Source: a virus. Taken from it: DNA of 64,000 bases. The notes beneath the pieces were generated by a model. It worked only from the letters and a program-made list of their open reading frames with translations, searched no databases and was not told the origin of the DNA. Shown here piece after piece: positions 18,411 through 58,666 of this stretch. The DNA lies in the IMG/VR virus record IMGVR_UViG_3300041583_000345, positions 57,931 to 121,930 of that record. One strand, written 5' to 3'. The first letter of the stretch is position 1. Each line of letters begins with the position of its first letter. The position numbers and the translations under genes were made by a program.

Positions 18411-18447
18411 GTTGTATTTGCTTTATTATAAATATCTTAAATTTTAA

Positions 18448-21082: not shown

Positions 21083-21931
21083 TTATATTAAGTTTTTTAT
21101 ATCTACTACTGACTCTACCCCAAATATAACCGCAGCTTTATTAAAAAACTTACTAACTCCCTGTGGAAGGGTGTTTATTCCGTCCGGAATTATATGACCA
21201 AGAAGTTTTATCTGAAATGTTGTTTTAACTGTTCTATCTTGTCCTTGGTTTAACTCTGTAGAAGTTGTATAATTATCAATCATAGCCCTAAAATTAAACT
21301 TATCTGGGTCTCCCCAGTAGGCATCTGAAGCATAATTTATACTTTCTACTAATTTATTCATCTGTTCTATATATTCTGTGAAGATTGTGCATGAATATGT
21401 GATATTTACATAGTCAGGCATAACAACTCCTTGATATTCTTTAACAATTGATCTTGTATTTAGTATAGAAAACTTATCGTATTTGTTTTTACTAGAGTAT
21501 TTTTTTTCAAATATACCGAAATGATTTGGATTGTTAGCATCCATTTTATTTCCCACCTGTCTGTTCTTTTCTATACTGTCTCTCTTAATCATTATAAGAG
21601 GAACTTGTATCTTTCCGTTTTTATCCCTGTAGAATCCGTCTTTTTGTACTGCAGCCCAGCGTTCTGGTGAACCATATAGTACGGGGACTGTTTTGGTTAT
21701 GCTATTTTGTACAACAGAGGGTCTAATTACTTCATTAAAGTAAAAGAATATTGCTTCATCTATTTCTCTAAGACCAATACTAAGTCGTTTTACATCATCT
21801 CCTTTAACTGTACGCTGGTTAGCTCTTGTTTTTGTGTTAACATCAGGGGTTTTGCCGTCTGGGAGTAAAGATGTTACTGTTTTCTGTGAGAGTTCTACTT
21901 GAGATTTCGGAAGTATTGTTTTACCTGCCAT
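21083..21931 (-). CDS. Tail terminator / completion protein (gp15-like)
   Basis: VPVLYGSPERW, PLIMIKR, PDYVNITY; lies in the neck cluster. Confidence 0.7.
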   Translation of the reverse strand: MAGKTILPKSQVELSQKTVTSLLPDGKTPDVNTKTRANQRTVKGDDVKRLSIGLREIDEAIFFYFNEVIRPSVVQNSITKTVPVLYGSPERWAAVQKDGFYRDKNGKIQVPLIMIKRDSIEKNRQVGNKMDANNPNHFGIFEKKYSSKNKYDKFSILNTRSIVKEYQGVVMPDYVNITYSCTIFTEYIEQMNKLVESINYASDAYWGDPDKFNFRAMIDNYTTSTELNQGQDRTVKTTFQIKLLGHIIPDGINTLPQGVSKFFNKAAVIFGVESVVDIKNLI

Positions 21932-22202
21932 ATTTCCTATTTACGTGTTGTCTAAATGCTTTTTTAAACGATGCAAAGACGTTAAACAGCTGTTCTAGCT
22001 TCTGATCTTCAGGGTATTTCTTTAATACATCTTTATAATTATCATATGCGGACTGAATAGCAGTATCTACTCTTTTTAACGGGGTATATTTAATATCCCA
22101 AGACACTGTACCTGTTACCGGATCAGTGCCAGTTTTTTTTGATTTAAAAGTAGTGCTATCCTGTCTCCAGTCGTCTTCGTTAAGTATATCCTTTATCTTC
22201 AT
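21921..22202 (-). CDS. Hypothetical protein with a MKIKDILNE leader (putative internal head protein)
   Basis: Shared N-terminal motif; TATTTATA box at 22207-22214. Confidence 0.65.
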   Translation of the reverse strand: MKIKDILNEDDWRQDSTTFKSKKTGTDPVTGTVSWDIKYTPLKRVDTAIQSAYDNYKDVLKKYPEDQKLEQLFNVFASFKKAFRQHVNRKYGR

Positions 22203-22712: not shown

Positions 22713-23030
22713 TTAATAGTCTCCTGGTAATTTCATTCGTTCGATTGTCTTATTTGCTATTTTTACTACTTTAACATCCGGGTATCTCTCTAAAGCGGAC
22801 TTTTTGAAAGCTTCAAAAGCTTCTGCCCCGTTTTTTTGTGTTATTAATTTTACTTTAAACACATACGTCTTAGTTAATTCATTGCTTCCGGCTGCTGTTA
22901 CTGTTGTAACCCCTGGCAATGCCCTTAAAAGTTCTGCTAGTCGCGTAGTAGATTCTCCAGTACTAATAACCTGTACCATAGCTCTGTAGGGTATAAAGTT
23001 TACTTCCAGTAATATGTCTGATAGTTTCAT
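22713..23030 (-). CDS. Hypothetical protein with a MKLSDILLE leader (putative internal head protein)
   Basis: Shared N-terminal motif. Confidence 0.65.
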   Translation of the reverse strand: MKLSDILLEVNFIPYRAMVQVISTGESTTRLAELLRALPGVTTVTAAGSNELTKTYVFKVKLITQKNGAEAFEAFKKSALERYPDVKVVKIANKTIERMKLPGDY

Positions 23031-24172: not shown

Positions 24173-24199
24173 AAAATACGGTTTACATATAAATAGTAG

Positions 24200-26407: not shown

Positions 26408-26472
26408 ACTTACTTAAAACGCTAAATAGTTATTTATACTTATAAATAGGCTAGTTTTTACATAACAGACAT

Positions 26473-30362: not shown

Positions 30363-31024
30363 AATGATTTAAGAACTGCTTCTTTAAGCGTCTTTTCTCT
30401 TTTAGTTAAACCCTCCATTATACTCTGTATAGCCATGTCATTTACTTCATCAGCCATTTCATCTGTTAGTTTATCTAACTCATCATCTGTTAATGGAGTT
30501 CCGTCTTCATATTCTGCATAACTTATAAAAGCATCAGCAAAGTCTGGGTAGTCTCTAGAGTCAACGCCATCTACTTCTATGGTTGATCTATCTATAGGTT
30601 TTGTTAAAGCACTAGGAGGATTCCCTCTACGTGCAGACCTAGCTAACATAGCATCAATACTTGCATTTGAACCTTTTTTTGGTTCATTCTCTAAAGAAAC
30701 TTCGTTTTTCCTTTCTCTCATTGACATTTCCTCCGAATTGGAGGCGAAGTCAATTACATCGTCTTTTAAAGCTGCTAAATCTTGTAGCAAATCTGTATCT
30801 ATTCCTCCCTGGTCATTCCATGCATTTATATAATCATCTACTGTAGGAAGACTTGTTATATGTTTAGGAGCATATTTATTCATTATTCGATCAAAGTTGA
30901 TTCTCTCTAAAGCTACTCTTAAGGCTTCTTCCTCACCTTCTATTGCTTGTTCTTTAATTATTTTACTTGTTTGTGAAAGTTTATTTTCTAATATAAACCC
31001 TCGTAGGTTAAAGTTGTTGCTCAT
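30356..31024 (-). CDS. Putative internal head protein sharing a module with ORF 31606-33408
   Basis: NF..I..KY.P....LPT.DDYI.AW...GG.D module; directly downstream of the protease gene. Confidence 0.65.
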   Translation of the reverse strand: MSNNFNLRGFILENKLSQTSKIIKEQAIEGEEEALRVALERINFDRIMNKYAPKHITSLPTVDDYINAWNDQGGIDTDLLQDLAALKDDVIDFASNSEEMSMRERKNEVSLENEPKKGSNASIDAMLARSARRGNPPSALTKPIDRSTIEVDGVDSRDYPDFADAFISYAEYEDGTPLTDDELDKLTDEMADEVNDMAIQSIMEGLTKREKTLKEAVLKSLK

Positions 31025-31602
31025 AATGCTCTTAATATATCGTTTATAATTAATTCTAGTTTACTATATATATTATCAGTTGTTTTTCCTTCATTTAACG
31101 CTACTGGGTTCATAAAAGCTCCCTGTGTAGATGGATTAGATACGAAGTCCCAACATACTAGCTCAAAATCAGTTTGTACTTCTAAAGTACCTTCGTTTGT
31201 TTGCTGTACTGAACCGGTTCCTCTAGAGGAAATACCTATTGTATGCCCTGCTTTGCATATTTCTTTAACAATATTACCTGAAGGTGTATTTAATAGCTCT
31301 ATACGTCCCATAAGGGCGTCTCCCTCCCACCATAGTTCTTTTACTACATGTGAAGCGTTCTTTAGAGAGACTATAGGAGACTCAGGGTGATCAAGTTCTC
31401 CAAAGGCATTTCCAACCTTAACAAACTCTTCTATATATCTTTGAGATTCTCTAAGAAGAATTTCTTTACTGTATGTGCGTCCGTTTTGATTCTTGGCTAC
31501 TGCTCTCTGCAGAATACCTTCTACTTCGTAGACTCCAGGTTTTGTTTTGGATTCTGTAAGTAGGGATCTAAAAGGGGTGACATCTACTAATAGCTGTGAC
31601 AT
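31021..31602 (-). CDS. Prohead protease (gp21-like)
   Basis: NQNGRTY, GELDHP, GISSRGTGS, WDFVSNPST. Confidence 0.95.
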   Translation of the reverse strand: MSQLLVDVTPFRSLLTESKTKPGVYEVEGILQRAVAKNQNGRTYSKEILLRESQRYIEEFVKVGNAFGELDHPESPIVSLKNASHVVKELWWEGDALMGRIELLNTPSGNIVKEICKAGHTIGISSRGTGSVQQTNEGTLEVQTDFELVCWDFVSNPSTQGAFMNPVALNEGKTTDNIYSKLELIINDILRAL

Positions 31603-36414: not shown

Positions 36415-36444
36415 TGAAATAATATTTATATATAAATAGTTGGT

Positions 36445-39211: not shown

Positions 39212-40333
39212 CTACTTTATTAATGCAAGTCTAGGAGTATAATCAGAAACTGTTGTTACTATCTTTATAGAGTTACCAATCTCCTGCTCAAGGTCTTGAC
39301 TATTACTTATTATTTTATAGTCTAGGTCACTACTAATAAACATTATAGGATGTGCTATTTCTTCTATGTATGCTTTGGCAAGATCTTTTGCTATTCTTAA
39401 ATTAAATTGCGATAAGGAATTTAGGTCCGCAGTTTCTACCTTTACTACCCCTGGGCCGTATATATCATCTAAAAGTTCCTTAAGGTTTATGTAAAATTGG
39501 TTTTCCTTATTTTTATCAGATGTTTGTTTAAGAACGTTTAAATAGTGGAATAACCTTCCCGTCCATCCTGCATTTTTAAGCGGTATTAATACCTTAGCAT
39601 CTTCTTCCGGGAAGAATTTTAATATGTTTGAAACTATTTCACCTATACTATCTCCTCTTCCTGAAATCTTTTTTGGAGCTAGTATTGCACCTGTTAATGT
39701 TCCTTTCTTATTTAAAGAAGAAGCTTTTAATTCTAATGTACCACTAGCTGTTAATACGTCCCCCTTTGGTGCACTTTTAGTATCACTAAGAAGGCAAACT
39801 AAGGCTATCTCTCCTCTTCCAACTCCTTTTTGATTTGAACCCGGGGAGAAGCTAATTAATTTATTAATATGTTTTGAATCTATACCGGTTATATTTGCTA
39901 ACTCGCTTGAGAGGTTTCCTGATTTAGAAAGTTTATCGAATGTATTATTACTATTATTAAGCGAGGAAATTATATTGTTTTCTATGTTATTTTTATCTGC
40001 ATACCCAACAATTAAAAGAGTTTGTTCTTCCCCTAACCCTTTTTTAGTTAATGCATTAATTAGAGAAGTAGTATACCCTTTCCCGGTTTTCTTAATAACT
40101 GAATAAAGCTTAGCAATCTGTTCTGGGGAAAACTCTTGTTCTTTCGAATTTAAAAGTTTAATTATATCCTGGACTGATTGGTTGGTTTGTTGAGTTTCTT
40201 GTTTTACTGTATCTGTAAGTTTAACTCCAAACATATCTTCAAATAAAATTATATCCTCTTGATTATTAATATCAGGATATCCTTTATTAGTTCTATAAGA
40301 CCATTCTTGTATAATTTTATCTATAAGATTCAT
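39212..40333 (-). CDS. Putative internal protein with a PD-(D/E)xK nuclease-like domain
   Basis: MNLIDKIIQE leader; GVGRGEIAL...GDV...LELK. Confidence 0.5.
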   Translation of the reverse strand: MNLIDKIIQEWSYRTNKGYPDINNQEDIILFEDMFGVKLTDTVKQETQQTNQSVQDIIKLLNSKEQEFSPEQIAKLYSVIKKTGKGYTTSLINALTKKGLGEEQTLLIVGYADKNNIENNIISSLNNSNNTFDKLSKSGNLSSELANITGIDSKHINKLISFSPGSNQKGVGRGEIALVCLLSDTKSAPKGDVLTASGTLELKASSLNKKGTLTGAILAPKKISGRGDSIGEIVSNILKFFPEEDAKVLIPLKNAGWTGRLFHYLNVLKQTSDKNKENQFYINLKELLDDIYGPGVVKVETADLNSLSQFNLRIAKDLAKAYIEEIAHPIMFISSDLDYKIISNSQDLEQEIGNSIKIVTTVSDYTPRLALIK

Positions 40334-40342
40334 TTATTGTTA

Positions 40343-41002
40343 TTATGCTTCTGGTTCTTCTCCGTCTTCAAAATCAATAGGCTCATCGGATAAATCCTCT
40401 CCTCCTCCTTCATCACCACCTTCTGCTCCTCCGGTATCATCTGCTGCAAAGTCATCTTCTCCTCCTGTTGCTCCTCCTTCTCCTCCAGGAAATTCCCCAC
40501 CGCCCCCAGATGCGTCTGCTACATCTGATCCTGATACTGAGTCTTCCCCTGCGCCTTTCATTGGTGATTCTGAGTAGAGTATTGCAAGTTTGTCTAGAGC
40601 TTGTTGGTAGTCTGAAATATTGGAAAGGGTGTATCGTTTACCTAGAATTTTAGCAACAAAGGTTTTACCCATCCATTTTAACTCGTAGTCTTGACCGTTC
40701 TTGAGGTTAATTCTAAAAGCGGTCGGTCTTGGAGAGATCCAATCTATTGTATCTACAAATTCTAAAAAGTCTTCTGTTTGTAATTTTACAATAGCCTGTT
40801 TCAAGGTTGGAAACTTAGCTAAAATAGTATCTGTTGCATCTTCAAGTACAGTCTCTTTTGGTGCATCCATATCAGGTTCTTCTTCAGGTGTTGGCTTTTC
40901 TTCAGTTTCTTCTTCAGCTTCCTCTAGCTCATCTAATAAACCTTCTAATAAAACTTCTTGGTATGCTTCTAGTATAATATTCTTTAAATCGCTTTTTTTC
41001 AT
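40343..41002 (-). CDS. Acidic putative prohead core protein
   Basis: MKKSDLKNIILE leader; very Glu/Asp/Gly-rich termini. Confidence 0.6.
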   Translation of the reverse strand: MKKSDLKNIILEAYQEVLLEGLLDELEEAEEETEEKPTPEEEPDMDAPKETVLEDATDTILAKFPTLKQAIVKLQTEDFLEFVDTIDWISPRPTAFRINLKNGQDYELKWMGKTFVAKILGKRYTLSNISDYQQALDKLAILYSESPMKGAGEDSVSGSDVADASGGGGEFPGGEGGATGGEDDFAADDTGGAEGGDEGGGEDLSDEPIDFEDGEEPEA

Positions 41003-44429: not shown

Positions 44430-45089
44430 TTAGGTATTTTTGTACCGTGCTTTTTGTAAGTATTTATTTTCTTTTAATTTAGGTGTATTGTCGTGCCAAC
44501 ATTTATGGCAAGTATATAAATCGTCTCCACCCTCTTTTATTTTCCAATGCCAATCGCAATTGTCGCAGTGTATTTCATCTCCAACTATGGTTTCGAACAT
44601 ATCTTCGGCTTTATAAGCTGATACGTCTACTTCAATATCATCTGTTCCACTTATTTTAGCTTTTGGAAAATTTTTCTGTATAATAATTTTATATAATTTT
44701 GCTCTAGTATTATCTTTAGCATCTTCTTCCCCTGTTTTTCCTTTGGTAGGAGAATATAGTATACTATCAACATCACCCTTATATTCTATAAAAGATTTTA
44801 CTATATCAACTATAGTAGACATTATTTTAAGTGGTTCGTTTCCCCCCGTTAATTGTTTTGAAGACATACCCCTAACACCATGTTGGGCTAAAAATTCAAG
44901 TTCCCAAACAGAACGAGTGCCTATGTAATTGTAGAGATTAACCTCATATTTAGTACCACTGTCTGTGATAAAAGTATATACGTCATTTTCTTCATCGCTT
45001 TTATCAAATTCAGCTTTCCAATCGTAGGGTTTTTGAGATAAATCTCCTATCTCGTTTAGTTTTTCGAATATGATATCAGTTAATTTCAT
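44430..45089 (-). CDS. Putative internal protein with a C-terminal zinc ribbon
   Basis: MKLTDIIFE leader; CDNC...CHKC. Confidence 0.65.
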   Translation of the reverse strand: MKLTDIIFEKLNEIGDLSQKPYDWKAEFDKSDEENDVYTFITDSGTKYEVNLYNYIGTRSVWELEFLAQHGVRGMSSKQLTGGNEPLKIMSTIVDIVKSFIEYKGDVDSILYSPTKGKTGEEDAKDNTRAKLYKIIIQKNFPKAKISGTDDIEVDVSAYKAEDMFETIVGDEIHCDNCDWHWKIKEGGDDLYTCHKCWHDNTPKLKENKYLQKARYKNT

Positions 45090-45091
45090 CT

Positions 45092-45817
45092 TTATCCTAA
45101 ATTAGTAGACTGTGTACCACCTTGAGGTTTAATTAAATCTTGGGCAAAAGCAGTTAATTTTTCTATTGAAGTAAATGCTGGGGTTCCTTTAGTTTCTCCT
45201 GTAGCTACATCTACTACTCTATATAATGCTCTACCGGATTTGTCTTTATATGTAGGTTCCACTTTTACTAATTTAAAAATATACTGATCATTATACTTAG
45301 AAGAAATTTGGTTTGGCCATTCTTGTGGGATGTCTTCCTCCTTTATAGCTTTTTTAGATAATTTAAAAGCCGCTAATCTTACTTTTAATCTTTTAATTTC
45401 AGCTTCATACCCCTTAGGATTTTCATCTTGTAATATTTTAATTTCTTTTTCTATATCCTTATAGGCTACAGCATTTTCGGCTACAGCTTTTTTAGCTGTT
45501 AAAGCTGCTTTAACTTGAGCTATATCTTTTTCTAGGTCCATAACTTCTTTATCCGTACCTCTAGATTTAGCTATTGCTAGCTCGTTGTTTAGGTTTATTA
45601 TGTACTGAGCTAGTTCATTTCTAGTGGTATTATCATATGCTGCTTCATTCTTCATAGCATTACCTGCTGCCACTGCATCTTTGTGTGCATTAGAATTACC
45701 GTGAGATGGTTTTTTACCTTTTTTACGTTTAGCATTAATATTAGCCCATAAGCCCGGTGTATTCTTTTCTGCTAATAAAGCATCTTTGATAATTTCTATA
45801 AGGTATGATTTTTTCAT
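45092..45817 (-). CDS. Modular putative internal protein
   Basis: MKKSYLIEIIKDALLAE leader; modules end in xxE. Confidence 0.6.
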   Translation of the reverse strand: MKKSYLIEIIKDALLAEKNTPGLWANINAKRKKGKKPSHGNSNAHKDAVAAGNAMKNEAAYDNTTRNELAQYIINLNNELAIAKSRGTDKEVMDLEKDIAQVKAALTAKKAVAENAVAYKDIEKEIKILQDENPKGYEAEIKRLKVRLAAFKLSKKAIKEEDIPQEWPNQISSKYNDQYIFKLVKVEPTYKDKSGRALYRVVDVATGETKGTPAFTSIEKLTAFAQDLIKPQGGTQSTNLG

Positions 45818-46211: not shown

Positions 46212-46790
46212 TTAAAAATGTTCCCGTAAGTGACCTAAGTAAGTCTTGAGGTCTTCTAATAACTGCTTGCTTTTATTTGTATTTGAGTTCCAGTCTTCTA
46301 TTACTCCATCTTCTGTGACAAAAGATTCGTTTGTATTAGATACTAAATCTAACACCCAATGTTCAACATCTTTTGCAAATGCTTGAATATTACCGGACAT
46401 CATTTTCTGTTCATAAGCTTGATATAAACCTGCTTTTTGTAAATCTGCTTCAAAGTTGACTGTACATGGATCAAAACAAAAACCATGTAGTTTATACATT
46501 TTTTTAGCTAAGTGGTGTTTCATTGTGCCCTTACACTTTGGACATATTAATGGTATATGAACTGCCTTTTTTGCAGCGTCTAATTTGGTAATGTTCTGTC
46601 TAATCCCATTTTTAACCGTCCAGTTCTTACCTCCTTCTTCCCATATTTCACCTTCTTTGTACCTCTTTATAACTTTTTGATACCCAACTTGGGTTTTAGT
46701 GTTAGCTGTATAGTCCTTATTTACTATATTCCTAACTCGTTGAACATCTGATTGTTTAAAGTCTTTTTTTAATAACGATTCCTTACTCAT
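46212..46790 (-). CDS. Hypothetical zinc-binding protein
   Basis: CPKC...CFDPC. Confidence 0.65.
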   Translation of the reverse strand: MSKESLLKKDFKQSDVQRVRNIVNKDYTANTKTQVGYQKVIKRYKEGEIWEEGGKNWTVKNGIRQNITKLDAAKKAVHIPLICPKCKGTMKHHLAKKMYKLHGFCFDPCTVNFEADLQKAGLYQAYEQKMMSGNIQAFAKDVEHWVLDLVSNTNESFVTEDGVIEDWNSNTNKSKQLLEDLKTYLGHLREHF

Positions 46791-47328
46791 ATCCGAGTTC
46801 TTTTAATTGACCTATTACTTGTTTTACATTTCCCTGCACACATCTAATAGCTATCCCGCCGCTGGCAGTCCATTCTTCTATATTAGATTTCTTATCATCT
46901 ATTAGGATAGTATTACTTTTTGCGTATCTTTGTTTATCAGCAGAGTATGAAAATATTACTTTTGGGTGTGGGGTTAAATGATTTCTAACCCACATATTTT
47001 TACCCAATCTTGAGTTATTATCTCTTGAAGGGGATGTAAGAAGGTCTGGTTGATAAGGTTTGATAAAGTCCCAAAGTTGTTGGCCGTTGGGCATAAATTT
47101 CATATCTGACCAAAACTTAAGTCCCACTTTCACATCTATTAACTCCCAAAAAGCGGCTGTACTATTTTTACTCTCGTATTCTTTTGGTTTCATACCGGAG
47201 AAATGTTCAAATCTCTCTTCGAAATCTGTTAATACTCCGTCCATATCACAATAAATCTTGTAAGGTGGTTTTTCTTTTTGTTCCGGTAATGTGTACCCTT
47301 CTGCTAGTAGTTCTGATATTTTTTTCAT
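46783..47328 (-). CDS. HAD-family 5'(3')-deoxyribonucleotidase-like phosphatase
   Basis: IYCDMDGVLTDF, LLTSP, ILIDDKKSN; MKKISELLAE leader. Confidence 0.85.
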   Translation of the reverse strand: MKKISELLAEGYTLPEQKEKPPYKIYCDMDGVLTDFEERFEHFSGMKPKEYESKNSTAAFWELIDVKVGLKFWSDMKFMPNGQQLWDFIKPYQPDLLTSPSRDNNSRLGKNMWVRNHLTPHPKVIFSYSADKQRYAKSNTILIDDKKSNIEEWTASGGIAIRCVQGNVKQVIGQLKELGYE

Positions 47329-47340
47329 ATAACCTTTATT

Positions 47341-49968
47341 TTATAAATTAACTTTTAGCCCTAATGCTTTTATACGGCTACTCCATAGTCTTTTAATCTT
47401 CATTCCTTCTTCCGGTGTAACTTCTACTTTATTTAGATAATCATCCACGACGTCTTTAAATGGAGTCTTACTCTTCTTAGCCTTAAAGTACATCCCCTGT
47501 ATCATTGCATCTATTTCTTTTGGAAGAGTATAGTATTTATTTTTATCTAACAAACCTACATTAATAAGGTCTCGTAAAGTTTGATCGTTTCCAAGGTACT
47601 TTCCCTGTTTTAAATTAGTGCCATCCTGTGTGAGGTGCTCTATTTCATGACGTATCACATCTTTAATATCCATTGATAATTCCTGATAATCTATTTTTTT
47701 AGGAACTTCAAATACTATATTTATTAGGGGTTGTATTTCATCTCCATCATCATCAATACCGGGGTTTGCTCCTCCATCTACTGAATAGTTATCTTCTGTG
47801 TTTCTCATGTGGATGTTTAAGTCAAACTCTAAAGGATGGTTATAATCAGCATCTTCCTCAGGACCTACTCTAAATGTATCCTCTACATCCTCACCTTTTA
47901 GGTGTGCAGTTTTAAATACTTTAAATACCGCGCTAGAGATATCATTAGATATCTTATCATACTTTCCTTCACTCACTACTGTTTTTTTTTTCTGACCGTC
48001 TTCCCAGTTGCGGAAGGTTATATTACCCTGTAAATACGCTTCTTTCTCTATCTCTAATAGATTATTATCTTCATTTGTATCACTAGTACCTATTAGGCCT
48101 AAACGTCCTTCTAGGTTCTGTATATGATGTATCATTTCGTGTACAAATGATCTCATAATATCTTTAGGGTGCCTTCCCTCTACATACAAAACTACTTCTT
48201 TTAAAGATGGGTCATAATATGCTGTCTTTCCAAAGAAATTTTCTGATTCGGTTAGGTCTTTTCTAATTCTAATCTCCGGAAGAGGTATAATTTTCATTTT
48301 TTGATCTATCATATACTCTAAAATAGAAGACATATAAGGTGTATAGTCAAATCCTTTTCTTTCTCCTTCCCCTTTTAGAGTTATACGTATATGATCTTGG
48401 TGAAACTCTATATTATAAAAGCTATCTCCAAGTACATCTCTCAATTGATTAAAGGTTCTCAGTAATTTAGCCCTATCATCTGATCTAATTATGGATTTAG
48501 GAGCGATAGGTGTTCCTAAGGATCCTTCTTTAATTTCTTCTTTAGTTGAAAATAAATCTTCAAGTGTACTAGTAAGGGCCATTTCCATTAACGTAGGGGC
48601 TAGTATATTTAATATCTTCTCTCTATCGCTCTTAGATACTTCTTTAGGTATCCAATTACCGGTTTTTAAGTATGTTTCTGAGTGTCTAATTGCAGTGGCA
48701 GAGAATTTATTATCTTCGTCTTTAACTTCAGGTAGGGTGAGTATCTCTAGATTTGGGTGTCTTTCAGGTTGTTTTAAGAAACCTGTAAATTTACTCATTT
48801 CGTCAGGAAGTGCTCCTGTAATAATCTTACCTACTGTGTTCTCATTATATTCTACGTACTTGTATATATCCGTTACTGGTGAGATAGGGCTAATTTTTAA
48901 TTCTATATCTGTAGGTATATACTTTGAATATACTTTCCAAATTTGTAAGGACTGGTCAGGGGTTATTTCTAATCCTTCCCTTACTTTTTTACCAATAAAA
49001 ATTACTAGTTTATCAGCTTTTCCTGCAAGTATTTTAGCATTATTAAAATGTGCTAAATGAGGAGGTTTAAATCCTCCTCCATACAGGGCTACTGTTTTAT
49101 TTTTATTTTCTTGTTCAAGTAAACTATCTACTTTGCTAAGTGCTTTTTCTTTATTATCACCTTTCGGGGTATTCGCTTCTCCTGATTTAACTGATATCAT
49201 ACTTTTAAAAATACCTTTTACCCTATTTTTTGATCTAGGATTTTTTAATTTATGAACAACGTCTACTAATAACTCTTCAAATGAACCTTCTATATTATAG
49301 TTGGATAGTAAATCTTTTATACTATTCCAATTAGTTGAAGTCCAAATTTCCTCTCTAGATACTTCTTTAAACCCTTCTAGTTTGACTTTTCGTAGTGTTA
49401 ATTTATTTGAACTTAAGTTAAATTCAAATTCTTCGTTTTCTTCTAAGGTAGGTATGTTTTTAATTCCCATTCTCTTGAATACATCTTGAGGATTTTCTTC
49501 AAGTAGAACCACTTTAGTCAACCCTAAAATTAATCCTTGCTTTTCAGCAGGTATATCTAAGAACCCACCTTTAAATTTATGTTCTTCATCGGTAAGGGAT
49601 ATTATATTATCTACCTGTATGTACTGGTTTTCTTTACCCTCTATCGGGTACAGTACCGAAATAATTTCTCCAGAATTATAATACTTTCTTCCCAAGTATT
49701 TTTCACTTTTAAATGGAATAATAATAGTGCTAGGAAGAGAATTAATTACACTTATAATTCTTTGTTTAACTTCTTTTTTATCTTCCCCTTCAAATAGGGT
49801 TATTAAATCTAAATCCCCATAATCAGATTTAGACCCTACTTTAACACTGCCGGAAAGATCCGCTTTCTTAAAACCAGGTACTTTTTTTAGAACTTCTTTT
49901 ATATATTTCTGAAATGTCTTTTGTACATCTGCTTTTTCAATTCTATTTCCTCCTGCTACTCCTGACAT
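47341..49968 (-). CDS. Multidomain protein: Pol-beta-type nucleotidyltransferase, HxGH nucleotidyltransferase and two HExxH domains
   Basis: GSVKVGSKSDYGDLDL..QVD; YGGGFKPPHLAHF..FSATAIR; VHEMIHHIQ; RHEIEHLTQ. Confidence 0.75.
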   Translation of the reverse strand: MSGVAGGNRIEKADVQKTFQKYIKEVLKKVPGFKKADLSGSVKVGSKSDYGDLDLITLFEGEDKKEVKQRIISVINSLPSTIIIPFKSEKYLGRKYYNSGEIISVLYPIEGKENQYIQVDNIISLTDEEHKFKGGFLDIPAEKQGLILGLTKVVLLEENPQDVFKRMGIKNIPTLEENEEFEFNLSSNKLTLRKVKLEGFKEVSREEIWTSTNWNSIKDLLSNYNIEGSFEELLVDVVHKLKNPRSKNRVKGIFKSMISVKSGEANTPKGDNKEKALSKVDSLLEQENKNKTVALYGGGFKPPHLAHFNNAKILAGKADKLVIFIGKKVREGLEITPDQSLQIWKVYSKYIPTDIELKISPISPVTDIYKYVEYNENTVGKIITGALPDEMSKFTGFLKQPERHPNLEILTLPEVKDEDNKFSATAIRHSETYLKTGNWIPKEVSKSDREKILNILAPTLMEMALTSTLEDLFSTKEEIKEGSLGTPIAPKSIIRSDDRAKLLRTFNQLRDVLGDSFYNIEFHQDHIRITLKGEGERKGFDYTPYMSSILEYMIDQKMKIIPLPEIRIRKDLTESENFFGKTAYYDPSLKEVVLYVEGRHPKDIMRSFVHEMIHHIQNLEGRLGLIGTSDTNEDNNLLEIEKEAYLQGNITFRNWEDGQKKKTVVSEGKYDKISNDISSAVFKVFKTAHLKGEDVEDTFRVGPEEDADYNHPLEFDLNIHMRNTEDNYSVDGGANPGIDDDGDEIQPLINIVFEVPKKIDYQELSMDIKDVIRHEIEHLTQDGTNLKQGKYLGNDQTLRDLINVGLLDKNKYYTLPKEIDAMIQGMYFKAKKSKTPFKDVVDDYLNKVEVTPEEGMKIKRLWSSRIKALGLKVNL

Positions 49969-49972
49969 ATTA

Positions 49973-50881
49973 TTATACTTTATATATTGTTAATTTTGAA
50001 TCATCTGGTAGAAATTTTCCTTTCAGTCCTAATCTTTCCTGATTATCAATCCAGTAAGGTTGTAAATCTTCAGGTATATCAGCTCTAGTAGAGTCTAGAA
50101 TCTTAATAAATCGATCTAAAATACTATTTAACACATCTTCTTTAAAGTTATTTCTCATAAACTCTATTAATTTAAAATAATCTTCTAATATTTCCGAAGT
50201 AAATTTTATATTATAAGATTTGGTTAATAAGTCTATTGCTTTAGAAGGTGACTTTGCTACTATTTTTTGAGTTTCTTTATCCTTAACTCCGTAGTTATGG
50301 GAAAATGTATATCCTAAATTTGAAAATAAAGCAAGCATTAGTTGTGTTCTATGTAGTCCTTTAACATTTCCTGAGTAGTTAGCGGAGTAGTAAGCAAAGG
50401 ATAACCAATCGAGATTACCGAAGTTAATGTCAATTTGTACCCCTATATTAGATTGTTCACCTTGGGGATTATATTGGGGGAATACAAAAAATAGAGTACC
50501 TGTTGATGAGCTTTTCTTATCAACTCCTATATCGGTGTTAAATTCTTCTATCTTATCCGCAATAGTATCCAGTACCGCTCTTTTAATTAACTGCCTGTTT
50601 GTTGCAGATCTAGCTCTTTGTTTATGGTTCCTATATAGTTCAACAATTTTAGATCTATCTAAATCCCAATCTTCTACTTGTATTAGAGATCTTTCTCCCA
50701 TTGCTAAGTCTATATCCCCGGAGTATTCTTTTTTTCCAACTGAACCTAGGGGTTTAATGTCTTTAAAGTATTTAGATGCTTTAGGGAAGATAGTACCTAA
50801 CTGCTGGTAGAATTTACCTAATGTAGGTTCTATGTCCTCTCTTTTTATCTTATCTGTAGCATTAAATACATTACCTCCCAT
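49973..50881 (-). CDS. Pol-beta-superfamily nucleotidyltransferase
   Basis: LGSVGKKEYSGDIDL and third acidic residue in VQIDI; TATTTATT at 50945-50952. Confidence 0.75.
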   Translation of the reverse strand: MGGNVFNATDKIKREDIEPTLGKFYQQLGTIFPKASKYFKDIKPLGSVGKKEYSGDIDLAMGERSLIQVEDWDLDRSKIVELYRNHKQRARSATNRQLIKRAVLDTIADKIEEFNTDIGVDKKSSSTGTLFFVFPQYNPQGEQSNIGVQIDINFGNLDWLSFAYYSANYSGNVKGLHRTQLMLALFSNLGYTFSHNYGVKDKETQKIVAKSPSKAIDLLTKSYNIKFTSEILEDYFKLIEFMRNNFKEDVLNSILDRFIKILDSTRADIPEDLQPYWIDNQERLGLKGKFLPDDSKLTIYKV

Positions 50882-52676: not shown

Positions 52677-52700
52677 AAAAATATCCGTAACTATAATACT

Positions 52701-52732
52701 ATAATATACGGACTTTAATTCGATTTAGCAAC
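52701..52732 (-). promoter_or_regulatory. Bacteroidota sigmaA-type promoter upstream of primase
   Basis: Minus strand GTTG-N20-TATATTAT. Confidence 0.55.
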
Positions 52733-52733
52733 T

Positions 52734-53162
52734 TTATACGTCAATCATTTTAAGTTGCCTTGTTTTTAGGTCTATCATTACATTCCCCTTACCGAAGTCC
52801 AATTCTTGTGGATCTATATTGTTTTCCTGTGCTTCTTGTTTAACTGCTTCTTCAAAATCATGAGGTATTTCTCCATTGAATACCTGTAAAAGCTCCATTG
52901 TTATAATACCTAATTTTGGGTTCATTACTTCTACATCGTGAATAAAAGCAAAGTTTCTAGTTGGTATTCCTTTTAGAAGTTCTGCATGTTCTATTTCAAC
53001 CTCATCAGTAGTTACTTTAACAACCACATTGTTAACTTGATATGCTGAGCCATAATCTCCTGAACCTAAGAATTTACCTCCGTCTGATTTTATTTTATCT
53101 ACAAGTCTAGTGTATTCTGGTGTAGGTTCTATAATTTCAAGTATAATAGAGGATAATTTCAT
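52734..53162 (-). CDS. Minimal protein-kinase-like enzyme (142 aa)
   Basis: LGSGDYGSAY, VVKV, DEVE, LDFGKGNVM (DxxxxN), terminal MIDV; MKLSSIILE leader. Confidence 0.75.
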   Translation of the reverse strand: MKLSSIILEIIEPTPEYTRLVDKIKSDGGKFLGSGDYGSAYQVNNVVVKVTTDEVEIEHAELLKGIPTRNFAFIHDVEVMNPKLGIITMELLQVFNGEIPHDFEEAVKQEAQENNIDPQELDFGKGNVMIDLKTRQLKMIDV

Positions 53163-53166
53163 GTTT

Positions 53167-53607
53167 TTATGATACGTCTATTTCAGAATGTTCAGCATCA
53201 TAACCTGCATTTCTCAAAGCAGATATCACTTCATTTTCATCAAATCTACTTCCATGGGAAAGTACTATTCCTGTTATACTCTTTATCATTTCAATAGCCT
53301 TAACTTCGTCTTCCTCTCTTTGTTTTACACCGTCGATAGATATACTGTATAGTTTACCGGTTTGCTCTACTGAGGTTATATTTATTTTAGGGCTACTGTT
53401 TTCTTCTGCTATTTCATCTAAACCTAAGTGTTTATGAAGTTCTTCCATAAAGAGCCCAACAAGGTGGGAGCCGTATTCATTTCTTACTACTTCTGCTACT
53501 CCTTGTGCAAAATCTTTATATCCTAGATTTGGATCTATTTTATCAATAGCGCTATTAATTGCTACTGCAATTTTACTTTCTTGTAATATTATATCCGTTA
53601 GTTTCAT
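53167..53607 (-). CDS. Putative internal protein
   Basis: MKLTDIILQE leader. Confidence 0.65.
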   Translation of the reverse strand: MKLTDIILQESKIAVAINSAIDKIDPNLGYKDFAQGVAEVVRNEYGSHLVGLFMEELHKHLGLDEIAEENSSPKINITSVEQTGKLYSISIDGVKQREEDEVKAIEMIKSITGIVLSHGSRFDENEVISALRNAGYDAEHSEIDVS

Positions 53608-53741
53608 TACCCCTGCCCTTTATATAGTTTTTGATAGTTTTTTGAACTTTTTAACTTTGATGTTTTACTTTTTGAATGAACTCCTGGTCGGCTTATTTTG
53701 CTTTTTGTTTTTGCTCTCCCGGCTGATGTTTCTTTTGCCAT
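53607..53741 (-). CDS. 44-aa Lys/Ser-rich basic peptide missing from the ORF track
   Basis: MAKETSAGRAKTKSKISRPGVHSKSKTSKLKSSKNYQKLYKGQG; its TAA overlaps the next ATG (TAATG). Confidence 0.7.
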   Translation of the reverse strand: MAKETSAGRAKTKSKISRPGVHSKSKTSKLKSSKNYQKLYKGQG

Positions 53742-53754
53742 ACTACCTTTAATA

Positions 53755-54513
53755 TTATATTCCTAATGATTTAGCATATTTCATTAAATTACAAGTCCAG
53801 TAGCCTGATTTTGTTTTGTCCGTCTTTGTAGAACACTTGTGCCTTATTCTATAAGCAGACATGGCTCCTTTAACTTTATTCTTTTGTGGGATACCCCCAT
53901 CGGTAAAAGCTACTTTTATTACTTTATTCCCATCCTTAACATAAACGTAGTATTTTTTAGTACCTCCACGTTTAGGTTTATCAAGTTTTACTTTTTTACC
54001 TTGATATTCTGCCTCGTTCATATATCCAACTGAAGCTTTTAACATATCAAATCCGCTGTAGTCAAAAGATTCATTATTTACGTCTACTGCTTTTCTAAAC
54101 TTATCCATATCTATTTGACCCCCTATTGATTCAACCATTTCTTTTATCTGGTCAAAATCAATCATATCAGCAATACATGACGCTTCATCAATTGTATCTT
54201 CATTTTCAATCATAGAGTCAATAAGTGCTCCAATTTCAAATAATGGATTATATTTTTTTGATACCATAGGCAGGTCTAATGGAACTTTCATACCATTATA
54301 TTGTGCATATTCTCCTATGTCTGTTGTTTCTATCAGATCTTGGTCCTCTTCTGTTAACTCTATTTCTTCGTTGCTAAGAGATTCTCTTGCTTCAGCAAAT
54401 AGGTTTACAAAGGCTGTTTCGTTACCCCGGTAGACATGTTCGTTTAATGGTAGTCCATTATCTAAATGGTACTTTAATGATGGGTAGCCAAGTACTTCTG
54501 TTAGTTTAATCAT
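53755..54513 (-). CDS. Modular putative internal protein with a basic C-terminal domain
   Basis: MIKLTE start; after YMNE comes AEYQGKKVKLDKPKRGG..KKYYVYVKD...YWTC. Confidence 0.65.
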   Translation of the reverse strand: MIKLTEVLGYPSLKYHLDNGLPLNEHVYRGNETAFVNLFAEARESLSNEEIELTEEDQDLIETTDIGEYAQYNGMKVPLDLPMVSKKYNPLFEIGALIDSMIENEDTIDEASCIADMIDFDQIKEMVESIGGQIDMDKFRKAVDVNNESFDYSGFDMLKASVGYMNEAEYQGKKVKLDKPKRGGTKKYYVYVKDGNKVIKVAFTDGGIPQKNKVKGAMSAYRIRHKCSTKTDKTKSGYWTCNLMKYAKSLGI

Positions 54514-54973
54514 TTTTAAAATCTTTTCTGTAGAATTTCCCGAGGATATTATCGTTTATGTAATCGTTAGTATCTTCAAGTACTCCTTTTATAAATAGGT
54601 ATTTAGTTTCAAAGTACGTTAATTGTTTTTTATTAGGCACGTACTGTAGTATGCTTCTTTGAAAGTCTTCTATTTTTCCTTTCCGTACTAACTCTTTAAT
54701 TTCTACTTGAGAGCCGTAATAGGTTTTCCAATCACTTTCAGTTACTACCTTCTTTTTGGCAGGAGTTCTACCTCCTATACCTGCTGCTTTTCTTTCAGCT
54801 TTTAAGTTTTCAAGCTCTCTTATTCCAAGTCTTTTATTCCTTTCAAAATATAGAACTTTTTTTCCTATATACTTCTTACCTGTCGGTATATGTTTTACTT
54901 CATATATAAAGCCATATGTTCCTGCAGGCATATTTTCTATATCCGGAACCGGTGTTGTGTTATATTTCCACAT
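54506..54973 (-). CDS. GIY-YIG endonuclease (T4 EndoII-like)
   Basis: YGFIYEVKH..TGKKYIGKK, WKTYYGS, YFE. Confidence 0.75.
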   Translation of the reverse strand: MWKYNTTPVPDIENMPAGTYGFIYEVKHIPTGKKYIGKKVLYFERNKRLGIRELENLKAERKAAGIGGRTPAKKKVVTESDWKTYYGSQVEIKELVRKGKIEDFQRSILQYVPNKKQLTYFETKYLFIKGVLEDTNDYINDNILGKFYRKDFKND

Positions 54974-56329: not shown

Positions 56330-58666
56330 TTAGAATTGGTTAGCAAAAGCCATATAGATATAGGTTTGTCCGTTTCCATTAAATTCTACATAACTAGTCT
56401 TTAATTCAAAGCCATTAGACAGAAAATCTATACCGTCATAAGCACCACCCTCTGCATTACTAAGGTTAGCATATAGTTGAATATCAGCTCCTCTTTTATT
56501 ATCCATCATTTGCCAGTTTCCGTTAGCTGAACTTGTCAATTTAATCATTACAAAAGCTGGTTCAAAACCAGTTGTAACAGTTGGCCCATTAGCAGAACCA
56601 TTACCAGTATAACTACCAATCTTACTAAACCCAGCCTTTTCAGCAAAGCAGTATGCTACTAAGTTTTCCCCGCCTATAGAACCCATTTGTCCGTCAAAAC
56701 TATAACCACCAGCAGCGCCAGCTGTATTTAATGTTAATATCTGTCCTCCTTTTAAAGTAAATGTATCATTTGAAGTTGAATTTTGCTCAACAGATTGATG
56801 CCAAGTAATCCATTGGTCGGTGCTATCGTTTCTATTTTTAACAATAAGCAAATCCAAAGGGCTTCCTAATCCGTGACCCACAGTAGTGCCAGAAGAATTA
56901 CCTCCGCTAAAAGTTACAATACTAAACCCAGCATCTACATTAGCAGACACCTCAGAAGTAATAGAGCCGTCTGTGTTAGTTACAGCAGCACCACCAGCTT
57001 TCCAACACCAAGCTACAAAGTTTTGAGAGTTTGCATTAGTTCCAACAAAAGTAGCTGCACTTACTGTAAATCCATCTAAATCAAAAGAGGTTATTGTATT
57101 GTAAAAATTTTCAGCAACAGTTAAATTTGAAATTAAGCCGTAACCAGCACCCCTAACTACATCGTGTAATTGATGGTCATAATCAATGCTTCTGCTCTTA
57201 ACCCATACTAAATCTGGCTGAAAGCCTACCCCACTAATAGATTGAGTAGAACCATTACCAGTGTAAGTAACAGTATTAAAACTTGCGTTACTTGGGCATT
57301 GCACCTCATTGTAAAGCGTTGTTACTTCTGCTGCTGTTATGGCTCTGTCGAAGATTTTAACTTGGTCTAATTTTCCGCTAAACTGTCTGCCAGAAGAACC
57401 AGCATATCCGCTTATTTGTGTCTCTAAACTAACAGAATTATTTAAAGCACCATAGCCACTATCTGAAATAGTAACACCTACGTTGTTTAAATATGAATTA
57501 AGAACACCGCTGCTATTTATTGTAAAAACTAAATGACTCCACACATTTGCAGTAAGCGTTATTGTAGGGGAAACCTTAAAAGAAGAACCATTAAAAAGAG
57601 CAAAATAATAAGTGTTTGTACTAGTGCCACTTTGTTGAATTACCCAACCACCTGTAGAGGTGTGTAAGTGGTCTATCATATGATTAGTACCACCTTGAGT
57701 AGCTTGAGGATTTACCCAAATAGATAAAGATATTGCACTAGCACCCAATCCAGCAACCCCAAAAGATACGTTTCCTAAAGTTATTTCACTACTACTTCCA
57801 TTAAACCCTCCAGCACTACCAAACCTTCCTTGTGTCCAACTAACATTCGTAGCCGTTCCATCGTATAAAGTTCCACTACCATTAGAATCTGTAGCATTGC
57901 CATCTAGCTTGTAGTAAGCTATGCAGTCTGGCACTATTTGTGGCGTATCTGTTGTGCAAGTCTTTTCGCAAGCTGCCTCTGCGTATAAGGTAGATACCTC
58001 TGCTGCTGATATTGCCTTATTGAAGATGCGTACTTGGTCTATTGAGCCGTTTAACCACCTATTTCCGGAAATCCAAGTGCCAAGCTGTAACCCGACGCTT
58101 GTATTGTATGCTTTTCCAGCCCCTCTTGTTAAGGTGGATTCTAATACTCCATTTATATATGCTTTTAAAGTTCCACCAGATAATCCGTCCCAAGTTACAA
58201 TAATATTAATCCAATTTCCGGAAATTAAGTTTGTTGAAAATCCAGTCATTACTTCATCTACATTTGGTCCGTTACCAGCAAATCCATAAACGTTTAAAGT
58301 GTTGGTGGTTGGGGCTATTGAAAATTGGTTATTATCTGCGGAAGAAGTTGAGCCTAAGCTAACTAAAATATTGTCTGTATTTGTTGTTTTGTACCAGCAA
58401 GATATTGTTCTTGATAAATTCCCACTTATTCCAGAAGAAGCAACAACCTTACTACTACTCCCATTAAAAGAACCAGCACTATCTATATGACCATTAACAA
58501 AAGAAACATTAGTAGCTACGCCATCATAGTTGCCACTCATATCTGAGCCATCCCAGTTCAATTGGTATAAAGCTACACCGCTGCTATCTCCAAAAATATC
58601 CGCTTCGTCAGAAGTACATACACCACCGCCAGCATCATTTGATTTTATTAATCTTGAATTAATCAT
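56330..58666 (-). CDS. Putative receptor-binding protein with two LamG/ConA-like domains and a C-terminal fibre domain
   Basis: Two LamG-type repeats (F.GSSS...IDQVRIFNKA; LDQVKIFDRA); FNTVTYTGNG..GFQPDLVWVKSR. Confidence 0.75.
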   Translation of the reverse strand: MINSRLIKSNDAGGGVCTSDEADIFGDSSGVALYQLNWDGSDMSGNYDGVATNVSFVNGHIDSAGSFNGSSSKVVASSGISGNLSRTISCWYKTTNTDNILVSLGSTSSADNNQFSIAPTTNTLNVYGFAGNGPNVDEVMTGFSTNLISGNWINIIVTWDGLSGGTLKAYINGVLESTLTRGAGKAYNTSVGLQLGTWISGNRWLNGSIDQVRIFNKAISAAEVSTLYAEAACEKTCTTDTPQIVPDCIAYYKLDGNATDSNGSGTLYDGTATNVSWTQGRFGSAGGFNGSSSEITLGNVSFGVAGLGASAISLSIWVNPQATQGGTNHMIDHLHTSTGGWVIQQSGTSTNTYYFALFNGSSFKVSPTITLTANVWSHLVFTINSSGVLNSYLNNVGVTISDSGYGALNNSVSLETQISGYAGSSGRQFSGKLDQVKIFDRAITAAEVTTLYNEVQCPSNASFNTVTYTGNGSTQSISGVGFQPDLVWVKSRSIDYDHQLHDVVRGAGYGLISNLTVAENFYNTITSFDLDGFTVSAATFVGTNANSQNFVAWCWKAGGAAVTNTDGSITSEVSANVDAGFSIVTFSGGNSSGTTVGHGLGSPLDLLIVKNRNDSTDQWITWHQSVEQNSTSNDTFTLKGGQILTLNTAGAAGGYSFDGQMGSIGGENLVAYCFAEKAGFSKIGSYTGNGSANGPTVTTGFEPAFVMIKLTSSANGNWQMMDNKRGADIQLYANLSNAEGGAYDGIDFLSNGFELKTSYVEFNGNGQTYIYMAFANQF

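Follow-up and report, generated by a model that had tools for sequence, protein, structure and literature searches.

A predicted minimal T7-type protein kinase variant of T4-like phages that ends one residue past the DFG-equivalent aspartate

Overview

The window, which is the whole 64,000-nucleotide stretch of viral DNA analysed here (positions 57,931 to 121,930 of IMG/VR record IMGVR_UViG_3300041583_000345), encodes a 142-residue protein, termed here the mini-kinase, whose family is new as a minimal variant of the T7-type phage protein kinases. The earlier note on this DNA had described the gene product as a minimal kinase that ends one residue past the aspartate equivalent to that of the DFG motif; the open reading frame has been confirmed, and all 101 near-full-length homologues share this end. 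We assign a probability of roughly 55% to the joint reading in which the mini-kinase is a self-contained minimal kinase, a reduced and distant member of the lineage of the phage T7 gp0.7 kinase (T7K), that would be active and promiscuous and, as a secondary step, would be packaged in the capsid. The features on which the analysis rests are collected in Table 1.

Table 1. Features of the mini-kinase gene, its surroundings and the prohead protease gene (window coordinates)
Feature	Position	Strand	Remarks
T4 gp21-type prohead serine protease	31021..31602	(-)	Pfam Peptidase_S77 6.6e-33, PHROG 207 9e-51
AT-rich hairpin followed by AUUUUUAU	52679..52716	(-)	between mini-kinase stop and primase start
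Mini-kinase gene	52734..53162	(-)	142 aa + TAA stop; ORF listing and translation
Metal-binding Asp D141 + V142 + TAA stop	52734..52742	(-)	D141 invariant
Catalytic loop D122-F-G-K-G-N127 (DxxxxN)	52782..52799	(-)	counterpart of T7K D195-M-H-S-G-N200
alphaC acidic residue E56	52995..52997	(-)	invariant in 38-sequence alignment; in model helix 54-63
beta3 Lys K49 (in VVKV)	53016..53018	(-)	invariant in close clade and wide family; aligns with T7K K93
Gly-rich loop G33-S-G35-D-Y-G38	53049..53066	(-)	aligns with T7K GNGHFS loop
N-terminal leader, residues 1-12 (MKLSSIILEIIE)	53127..53162	(-)	two I-x-E motifs, ending at E9 and E12
Three close-packed upstream genes, same orientation	53167..54513	(-)	252 aa, 44 aa (basic), 146 aa
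TATTTATA box	54590..54597	(-)	77 nt upstream of the 4-gene cluster ending with the mini-kinase

The mini-kinase gene and its locus

The window comes from a T4-like phage that encodes a gp20 portal, a gp21-type prohead protease and a gp23 capsid protein, and the IMG/VR record to which it belongs is 121.9 kb long with a completeness estimate of 74%. The nearest cultured relative is the Flavobacterium phage vB_FspM_immuto (immuto), in which the gene order is the same. The mini-kinase reading frame opens with an ATG at 53162 and closes with a TAA at 52734-52736 on the minus strand. Its start lies 4 nt past the stop of the preceding gene, so that co-transcription with the three upstream genes is likely. 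Two of these three genes also carry leader-like N-termini. The mini-kinase gene adjoins genes for a primase and an exonuclease and stands outside the head module.

The upstream 146-residue protein has a counterpart in immuto and was considered as an obligate partner of the mini-kinase; this was rejected, as other small genes stand at that position in Tara contigs. The gene at 53167-53607 (-) shares a C-terminal domain with immuto gp177 (L001:5512-5991), including a similar ...SI.I.G.K... stretch, and both products end in S-E-[IM]-D-[VI]-S; a family search with the product of 53167-53607 returned nothing beyond a weak UBA match. The 44-residue reading frame at 53607-53741 (-) is very basic and rich in Lys and Ser, and it shares one base with the start of the next gene. 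Its product could be a small DNA- or RNA-binding peptide or an internal head peptide.

On the 3' side, the mini-kinase gene is followed by a 57-nt spacer with an AT-rich hairpin and then by the gene for a DnaG-type primase. The hairpin has a predicted folding energy of -12.8 kcal/mol (z -1.1, not significant), and a strict terminator scan found no terminator after the mini-kinase gene; the hairpin and the AUUUUUAU that follows it are a possible terminator or attenuator. A functional tie to the primase was also considered. The synteny holds in close and in some distant relatives, but the relative P0159 is encoded behind a gp19-like tail-tube gene, and the idea was set aside.

Several other genes of this region deserve mention. 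A SegE-type GIY-YIG protein (Pfam 4.8e-26) is encoded at 54506-54973 (-). Its gene has a fixed place in the gene order, shared with immuto and the Tara contigs, which argues against a recently mobile homing endonuclease. The immuto record and PHROG 447 name this gene 'NAD synthetase', which is probably a mis-annotation. Further downstream of the mini-kinase, the proteins encoded at 49973-50881 and 47341-49968 (-) both open with Pol-beta-type nucleotidyltransferase motifs (GS...GD[IL]D). In the 875-residue one of the two, Pfam also gives a weak match (E 0.0076) to an HxGH segment of cytidylyltransferase-like type; this protein is called NadR in the immuto record, a name that seems too specific.

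Predicted fold and catalytic residues

Structure prediction had been proposed as a check, and it yielded a confident model whose listed PDB matches are all protein kinases and whose last residue stands one past the DFG-equivalent Asp. The AlphaFold2 (AF2) model, computed with the family alignment, has a pLDDT of 89.7 and a pTM of 0.82. Following a disordered segment (residues 1-10), it contains a helix (15-26), three strands (30-35, 38-43 and 46-51), a second helix (54-63), two further strands (74-81 and 84-90), a third helix (101-113) and two final short strands (128-131 and 136-139). A Foldseek search of the PDB with this model gave at least 425 matches at E<=1e-3, and those listed are protein kinases or pseudokinases throughout. 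Furthermore, a VIA-align comparison with 48,161 representative chains gave best matches with Z from 9.7 to 7.3, all of them to kinases, and the best alignments run to model residue 141 or 142 and to the DFG of the matched kinase. The kinase endpoints of these alignments are residue 595 in BRAF, 187 in PIM1, 157 in PknB and 158 in TBK1, which, by established kinase numbering, we take to be the DFG positions. A profile of the wide family led to the same folds, with CDK5 matched at E 1e-4 and the last position of the profile placed on the DFG Phe; the best 60 of the 579 PDB matches of this profile are kinases or kinase domains.

Taken together, the AF2 model and the structural and profile matches indicate that the mini-kinase is predicted to consist of an N-lobe, an alphaE-like helix, a catalytic loop and a Mg loop only. 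The elements of the protein-kinase-like (PKL) N-lobe are present, namely a five-stranded sheet with alphaC, a Gly-rich loop, the beta3 Lys and the alphaC acidic residue. The PKL catalytic loop (DxxxxN) and the Asp at the DFG position are present as well, with the exception that 14 of 101 close members are without D122. The PKL helical C-lobe (the activation segment and alphaF-alphaI) is absent from the mini-kinase. Canonical protein kinases (PF00069, for example CDK5 and PknB) have the same catalytic residues as the mini-kinase and fold in the same way over the N-lobe, catalytic loop and Mg loop, whereas the mini-kinase family covers only about positions 6-142 of the kinase profile and has no activation segment, APE motif or alphaF-alphaI. 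These limits come from the best-scoring relative (P0222), which reaches 19.7 bits over positions 6-142 of the 263-position Pfam Pkinase profile. The mini-kinase itself matched no Pfam family at E<=1, with Pkinase (PF00069) staying below its gathering threshold of 31.7 bits. T7K likewise has no match in the Pfam copy searched, so this blank is uninformative for the mini-kinase.

The Gly loop, beta3 Lys, alphaC Glu, hinge, DxxxxN and metal-binding Asp had all been assigned within the 142 residues by the earlier note, and each is found where it was placed, an agreement well beyond what chance would give; the absence of an activation segment and lower C-lobe is equally borne out, since the chain stops at V142. 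In a 38-sequence alignment of 24-55% identity, the only invariant positions besides the start Met are G35, G38, K49, E56, D122, N127 and D141, and G33, T51 and D53 are kept at >=90%. Together, these invariant residues make up the standard catalytic set of protein-kinase-like folds. As to the alphaC acidic residue, E58 is invariant in the close clade only, whereas E56 is invariant across the wide family. The fifth strand and the hinge correspond to GIITMEL (residues 84-90).

The position five residues before the invariant Asn varies among the 101 close members, being Asp in 87, Ser in 11, Lys in 2 and Gln in 1. Consequently, the canonical catalytic Asp is missing from 14 close members, which include the only cultured phage, immuto. 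All 13 of the Ser and Lys variants, that of immuto among them, have an Asp directly before the Asn (N-1). The Ser/Lys/Gln clade would have either lost activity or relocated its catalytic base.

Homologues and the fixed chain end

A word-indexed search identified 102 homologue clusters, nearly all of 141-151 residues and mostly from marine metagenomes. The near-full-length close homologues end, without exception (101/101), in [MLIV][TVI]D[VI] followed by the stop codon. About 50 distant stand-alone relatives of 140-226 residues behave similarly: nearly all end at Asp+1 and a few at Asp+2-4, and the last positions of the profile coincide with their own C-termini. In these distant members, the final Asp is followed by one of V, I, F, Y or L, and this terminal hydrophobic residue aligns at the position of the DFG Phe. 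Whether homologues end at the same point had been named as a check on the minimal form; they do, and in tandem forms a new unit begins after a short linker.

These tandem forms emerged from an exhaustive profile search, which collected 760 proteins at E<=1e-3. The word-index search had returned no longer relatives, and the many long multi-unit proteins found by the profile search indicate that this blank was a limit of sensitivity. The multi-unit proteins are giant phage proteins of 560-2,400 residues with 2-5 detected mini-kinase units, in which 35-70 residues separate each Asp from the next Gly loop. They include P0124 (L002:8001-11888), P0119-P0122, P0127, P0218 and P0219, and reach 2,382 residues. 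P0124 and two other giants contain a cytidylyltransferase/NMNAT-like domain, and P0124 is encoded among the PolA, RecA, DnaB and RNR genes of a phage replication module. At the N-terminus of P0218, a putative SAM-methyltransferase-like glycine motif was read by eye.

A chain that stops mid-way through what is normally a single domain could in principle be what is left of a truncated gene, or the front part of a split kinase, with the C-lobe supplied by another gene or by read-through, and the GIY-YIG endonuclease-like gene 1.3 kb upstream would fit such an event. However, this gene has the same position in all relatives examined, and the end of the mini-kinase recurs in every close (101/101) and nearly all distant members. 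The tandem forms proceed from the Asp through a 35-70 residue linker to the next unit, and downstream of the mini-kinase itself lie the spacer with its hairpin and the primase gene. In addition, neither the window nor the whole 121.9-kb genome record yielded a second match, whether a paralogue or a separate C-lobe gene. Truncation or gene splitting is therefore excluded for practical purposes. On the basis of the shared chain end and of the T7K-type kinases that have no helical C-lobe (see below), we read the mini-kinase instead as the minimal extreme of a phage kinase type that is already known and whose activity has been demonstrated.

Even between deeply diverged members the chain stops at D+1, while T7K-type kinases have tails of varying length, and this contrast argues for selection on the end itself. 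We infer that the V142-type terminal hydrophobic residue completes the hydrophobic spine and that the terminal carboxylate lies near the Mg site. The conservation of the D+1 end at such distances suggests that the last residue, or its carboxylate, helps to build the active site.

Relation to the T7 gp0.7 kinase

The earlier note had pointed to the T7 gp0.7 kinase, which modifies many host proteins, and the link proves to be one of real homology. An hhalign comparison of the family with T7K alone gave a probability of 93% (E 3e-7), which rose to 97% (E 1e-10) when the kinases of Xylella phage Cota and Caulobacter phage Cd1 were included with T7K. The alignment places residues 22-142 on T7K 62-215, with D141 on D213 and V142 on P214. 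Furthermore, 13 of 38 members match PHROG 15752, the T7-type kinase family; the mini-kinase's own match to it is weak (E 0.004). The best structural neighbours in BFVD after the family itself are kinases of T7-like phages, including A0A7L7SMK1, which a study of T7K gives as a homologue (PMC13645617). In many relatives the catalytic loop has the form D-[ILF]-H-x-G-N-I-M; that of T7K is D-M-H-S-G-N-I-M, followed by I-T-D213-P-V.

According to the same study, T7K is active alone and hyperpromiscuous, with a DPV motif (213-215) at the DFG position (PMC13645617). Similar to the mini-kinase, T7K and its homologues in the Autographiviridae (PHROG 15752) are phage-encoded and have no helical C-lobe past the Asp. 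Natural T7K-type kinases end 12 (Cd1) or 26 (Cota) residues past the Asp, and in T7 the sequence past the Asp leads into a highly charged stretch. The short tails of Cd1 and Cota indicate that the helical C-lobe is dispensable in the T7K lineage, so that a kinase without subdomains VIII-XI already has an active representative. T7K and the mini-kinase have in common the G-loop, beta3 Lys, beta4-5, the alphaE-like helix, a D-x-H/R-x-G/D-N-I-M loop and the metal-binding Asp.

The two differ in several respects. T7K alone has a 60-residue N-terminal extension and an insert of about 45 residues before the catalytic loop; an insert before the alphaE-like helix occurs in T7K and in the relatives of 160-226 residues and is absent from the mini-kinase. 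In contrast to the mini-kinase family, T7K carries autophosphorylation sites in a conserved DPVSF tail, which is usually accompanied by a DNA-binding or shut-off domain at the C-terminus (PMC13645617). DPVSF is found in T7K, Cota and Cd1, whereas the mini-kinase family has neither DPV(SF) nor the Ser216 autophosphorylation site. The mini-kinase family is distinguished by its D+1 end, V or I at the position of the Pro in the T7K DPV motif, a length of 142 residues, the leader and the tandem arrays. T7K keeps at least 12 residues past the Asp, including DPVSF, and a T7K-type form with no tail is thus, to our knowledge, unprecedented. Without alphaF, the catalytic loop may be unstable.

The family also differs in its phages, which are T4-like marine and flavobacterial phages. 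A survey of T7K homologues collected 190 viral and 32 bacterial matches, which fall into Autographiviridae, jumbophage and prophage clades, and the portion of it available mentions no clade from T4-like marine phages (PMC13645617).

Proposed activity and alternative readings

The conserved residues suggest how the mini-kinase would work. ATP would be bound by the five-stranded N-lobe and alphaC through GxGxxG, K49 and E56, together with the hinge. Catalysis would draw on the one alphaE-like helix that is kept, on the loop D122xxxxN127 and on D141 as the Mg ligand, and the single hydrophobic residue past D141 would stand in for the DFG Phe, after which the chain ends. As the activation segment, the P+1 loop and alphaF-alphaI are all missing, the active site would be ungated and no substrate sequence would be selected, so that any exposed Ser, Thr or Tyr could reach the gamma-phosphate of the bound ATP. 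By analogy with T7K, for which this has been found experimentally, the enzyme would be constitutively active and promiscuous. Its targets would be host proteins early in infection, including defence proteins. The mini-kinase is thus most likely, as judged from sequence, an unregulated promiscuous kinase, possibly delivered from the capsid. Several points weigh against this joint reading, namely the 14 close members that have no Asp at the canonical catalytic position, the Pfam blank and the weak PHROG match, the complete loss of a T7K-type tail, the place of the gene outside the head module and the short, post hoc motif behind the packaging step.

Active kinases with a minimal catalytic core have been described outside the phages. 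OspG and NleH are active Ser/Thr kinases reported to be without Hanks subdomains VIII-XI (PMC12756638). Like the mini-kinase they do without these subdomains, and they are delivered into a target cell; however, they are bacterial type III effectors of about 190 residues or longer that keep residues past subdomain VII, and OspG needs E2~Ub. Neither is found among the PDB matches listed for the mini-kinase, which are filled by canonical kinases.

The requirement of OspG for an E2~ubiquitin partner for its activation (PMC12756638) also lends some weight to a different view, namely that the mini-kinase is a nucleotide-binding module with no phosphotransfer of its own, such as a pseudokinase, an ATP sensor, an ATPase or a half-enzyme activated by a partner. 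The absence of a substrate-binding lobe and the replacement of the catalytic Asp in 14 of 101 close members fit this view, and tandem arrays would suit cooperative or scaffold roles. We nevertheless regard it as unlikely. Every residue of the catalytic set, D122 and N127 among them, is kept without exception in the wide-family alignment, which is hard to explain for mere binding. With regard to a partner, no neighbouring gene is conserved (the upstream gene varies, and one relative lies behind a tail-tube gene), and the alphaE-like helix is largely charged, as expected of a solvent-exposed face rather than a missing interface. Moreover, the homologous T7K is active alone (PMC13645617).

The earlier note had also suggested a small-molecule kinase. 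In this alternative, the mini-kinase would phosphorylate a nucleotide, sugar or lipid-head-group precursor and work with a nucleotidyltransferase. The hint for it lies in the giant relatives, which fuse several units to a cytidylyltransferase- or NMNAT-like domain and whose catalytic loops weakly match APH and ABC1. The D-[ILF]-H-x-G-N loop of many relatives resembles the APH/Kdo-kinase type of catalytic loop, and an HxGH-type transferase is encoded three genes downstream in the window. In APH and choline kinases, however, substrate binding uses the helical C-lobe, so that in the mini-kinase no substrate pocket is left, and the mini-kinase has no match to Pfam APH (PF01636). A link through the downstream gene was examined and dropped, as the 875-residue NTase/HxGH protein has no detectable similarity to the mini-kinase, to P0124 or to the other giant proteins. 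The closest relatives by both homology and structure are protein kinases. Consequently, the small-molecule proposal is not supported, with the fusion in the giant relatives as its sole hint, and we consider it quite improbable.

The N-terminal leader and capsid packaging

Returning to the reading of the mini-kinase as an unregulated promiscuous kinase, its N-terminus suggests a route of delivery. Residues 1-10 of the leader have a pLDDT of 39 and are disordered in the model. A [LIV]xE motif is found within the first 13 residues of 100 of the 101 close homologues; some distant relatives have no leader and start directly at the N-helix. The leader type of the mini-kinase, MK[LK][ST]x[IL][IL]xE, is common to 9 of the 70 genes of the window, and the motif [KN][LKI][STIK][DSEY][ILKE][ILVK], which is short and was defined post hoc, is N-terminal in 9 of these 70 genes vs 3 internal matches in 20,237 residues. 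A DNA-level element (a promoter or RBS cassette) was considered as the source of this similarity and rejected, since the upstream DNA is not conserved and the codons differ; the leader is conserved as a peptide. Similar N-termini are found on neighbouring genes in related contigs.

The other leader-bearing genes of the window, all on the minus strand, are located at 53167-53607, 46783-47328, 45092-45817, 44430-45089, 40343-41002, 39212-40333, 22713-23030 and 21921-22202. The set includes a DUF6934-like protein and proteins that were first read as a HAD phosphatase and a PD-(D/E)xK nuclease. To go by their N-termini, the leader-bearing proteins would be candidate capsid-targeted, injected enzymes. 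A Tara contig of 182 kb that is a relative of the window has a second kind of leader-tagged kinase; there, L004:8222-9151 encodes a 309-residue P-loop kinase of the Zeta_toxin family with the leader MIKLANIILE...

The gene for the prohead protease lies near those for the gp20 portal and the gp23 capsid protein, and T4 likewise has all three. T4 gp21 cuts after L/I-x-E (PMC9026906), and the first 10 residues of the T4 internal protein IPIII suffice for capsid targeting (PMC3012670). Similar to the window proteins, IPI-III and Alt of T4 carry a short N-terminal hydrophobic-x-Glu peptide on otherwise unrelated proteins (PMC9026906, PMC3012670). IPI-III and Alt are targeted to the capsid, processed by gp21 and injected, as the mini-kinase would be. 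The window leader differs in sequence from that of T4. We know of no kinase among the packaged proteins of T4.

The shared leader, combined with a gp21-type protease of the kind that cuts after L/I-x-E, makes capsid packaging and delivery of the mini-kinase, as the earlier note had supposed, plausible. In this secondary step, the 9-12 residue leader would act as a T4-type capsid-targeting peptide that loads the protein into proheads, the gp21-type protease would cut the leader after I-x-E, and the remaining kinase of about 130 residues would be injected with the DNA.

A further element is the TATTTATA box. The window contains 24 matches vs 14.6 expected, and 17 of them are on the minus strand (examples are 36431-36438, 26441-26448, 24188-24195, 18427-18434 and 54590-54597). 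The majority of these 17 precede the start of a structural gene by 2-35 nt. This placement makes the box a likely late-promoter element. Its presence upstream of the mini-kinase cluster, when it is otherwise found by structural genes, together with the leader and the protease makes packaging and injection a reasonable hypothesis.

Implications

T7 gp0.7 kinase disarms bacterial defences. The present family would extend this anti-defence strategy, so far found mainly in the Autographiviridae, to abundant T4-like phages of marine habitats, and it may add a new mode of delivery in the form of a packaged, injected enzyme. A bolder version, which we offer as speculative and rather doubtful, is that the mini-kinase is the smallest self-sufficient kinase unit known (about 130 residues with a DFG+1 end), is preloaded in the capsid and is injected as a promiscuous enzyme, with the tandem giants as its multi-headed versions. 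If this were true, host defence and nucleic-acid-handling proteins would be phosphorylated within the first seconds of infection, before phage gene expression, and the tandem arrays in the giant proteins would be multi-headed forms of the same weapon. If active, the family would define how little of the kinase fold phosphotransfer needs, since the activation segment, the alphaF scaffold and the substrate groove are all absent. It would also be a very small, natural and well-conserved system in which to ask what makes T7-type phage kinases hyperpromiscuous.
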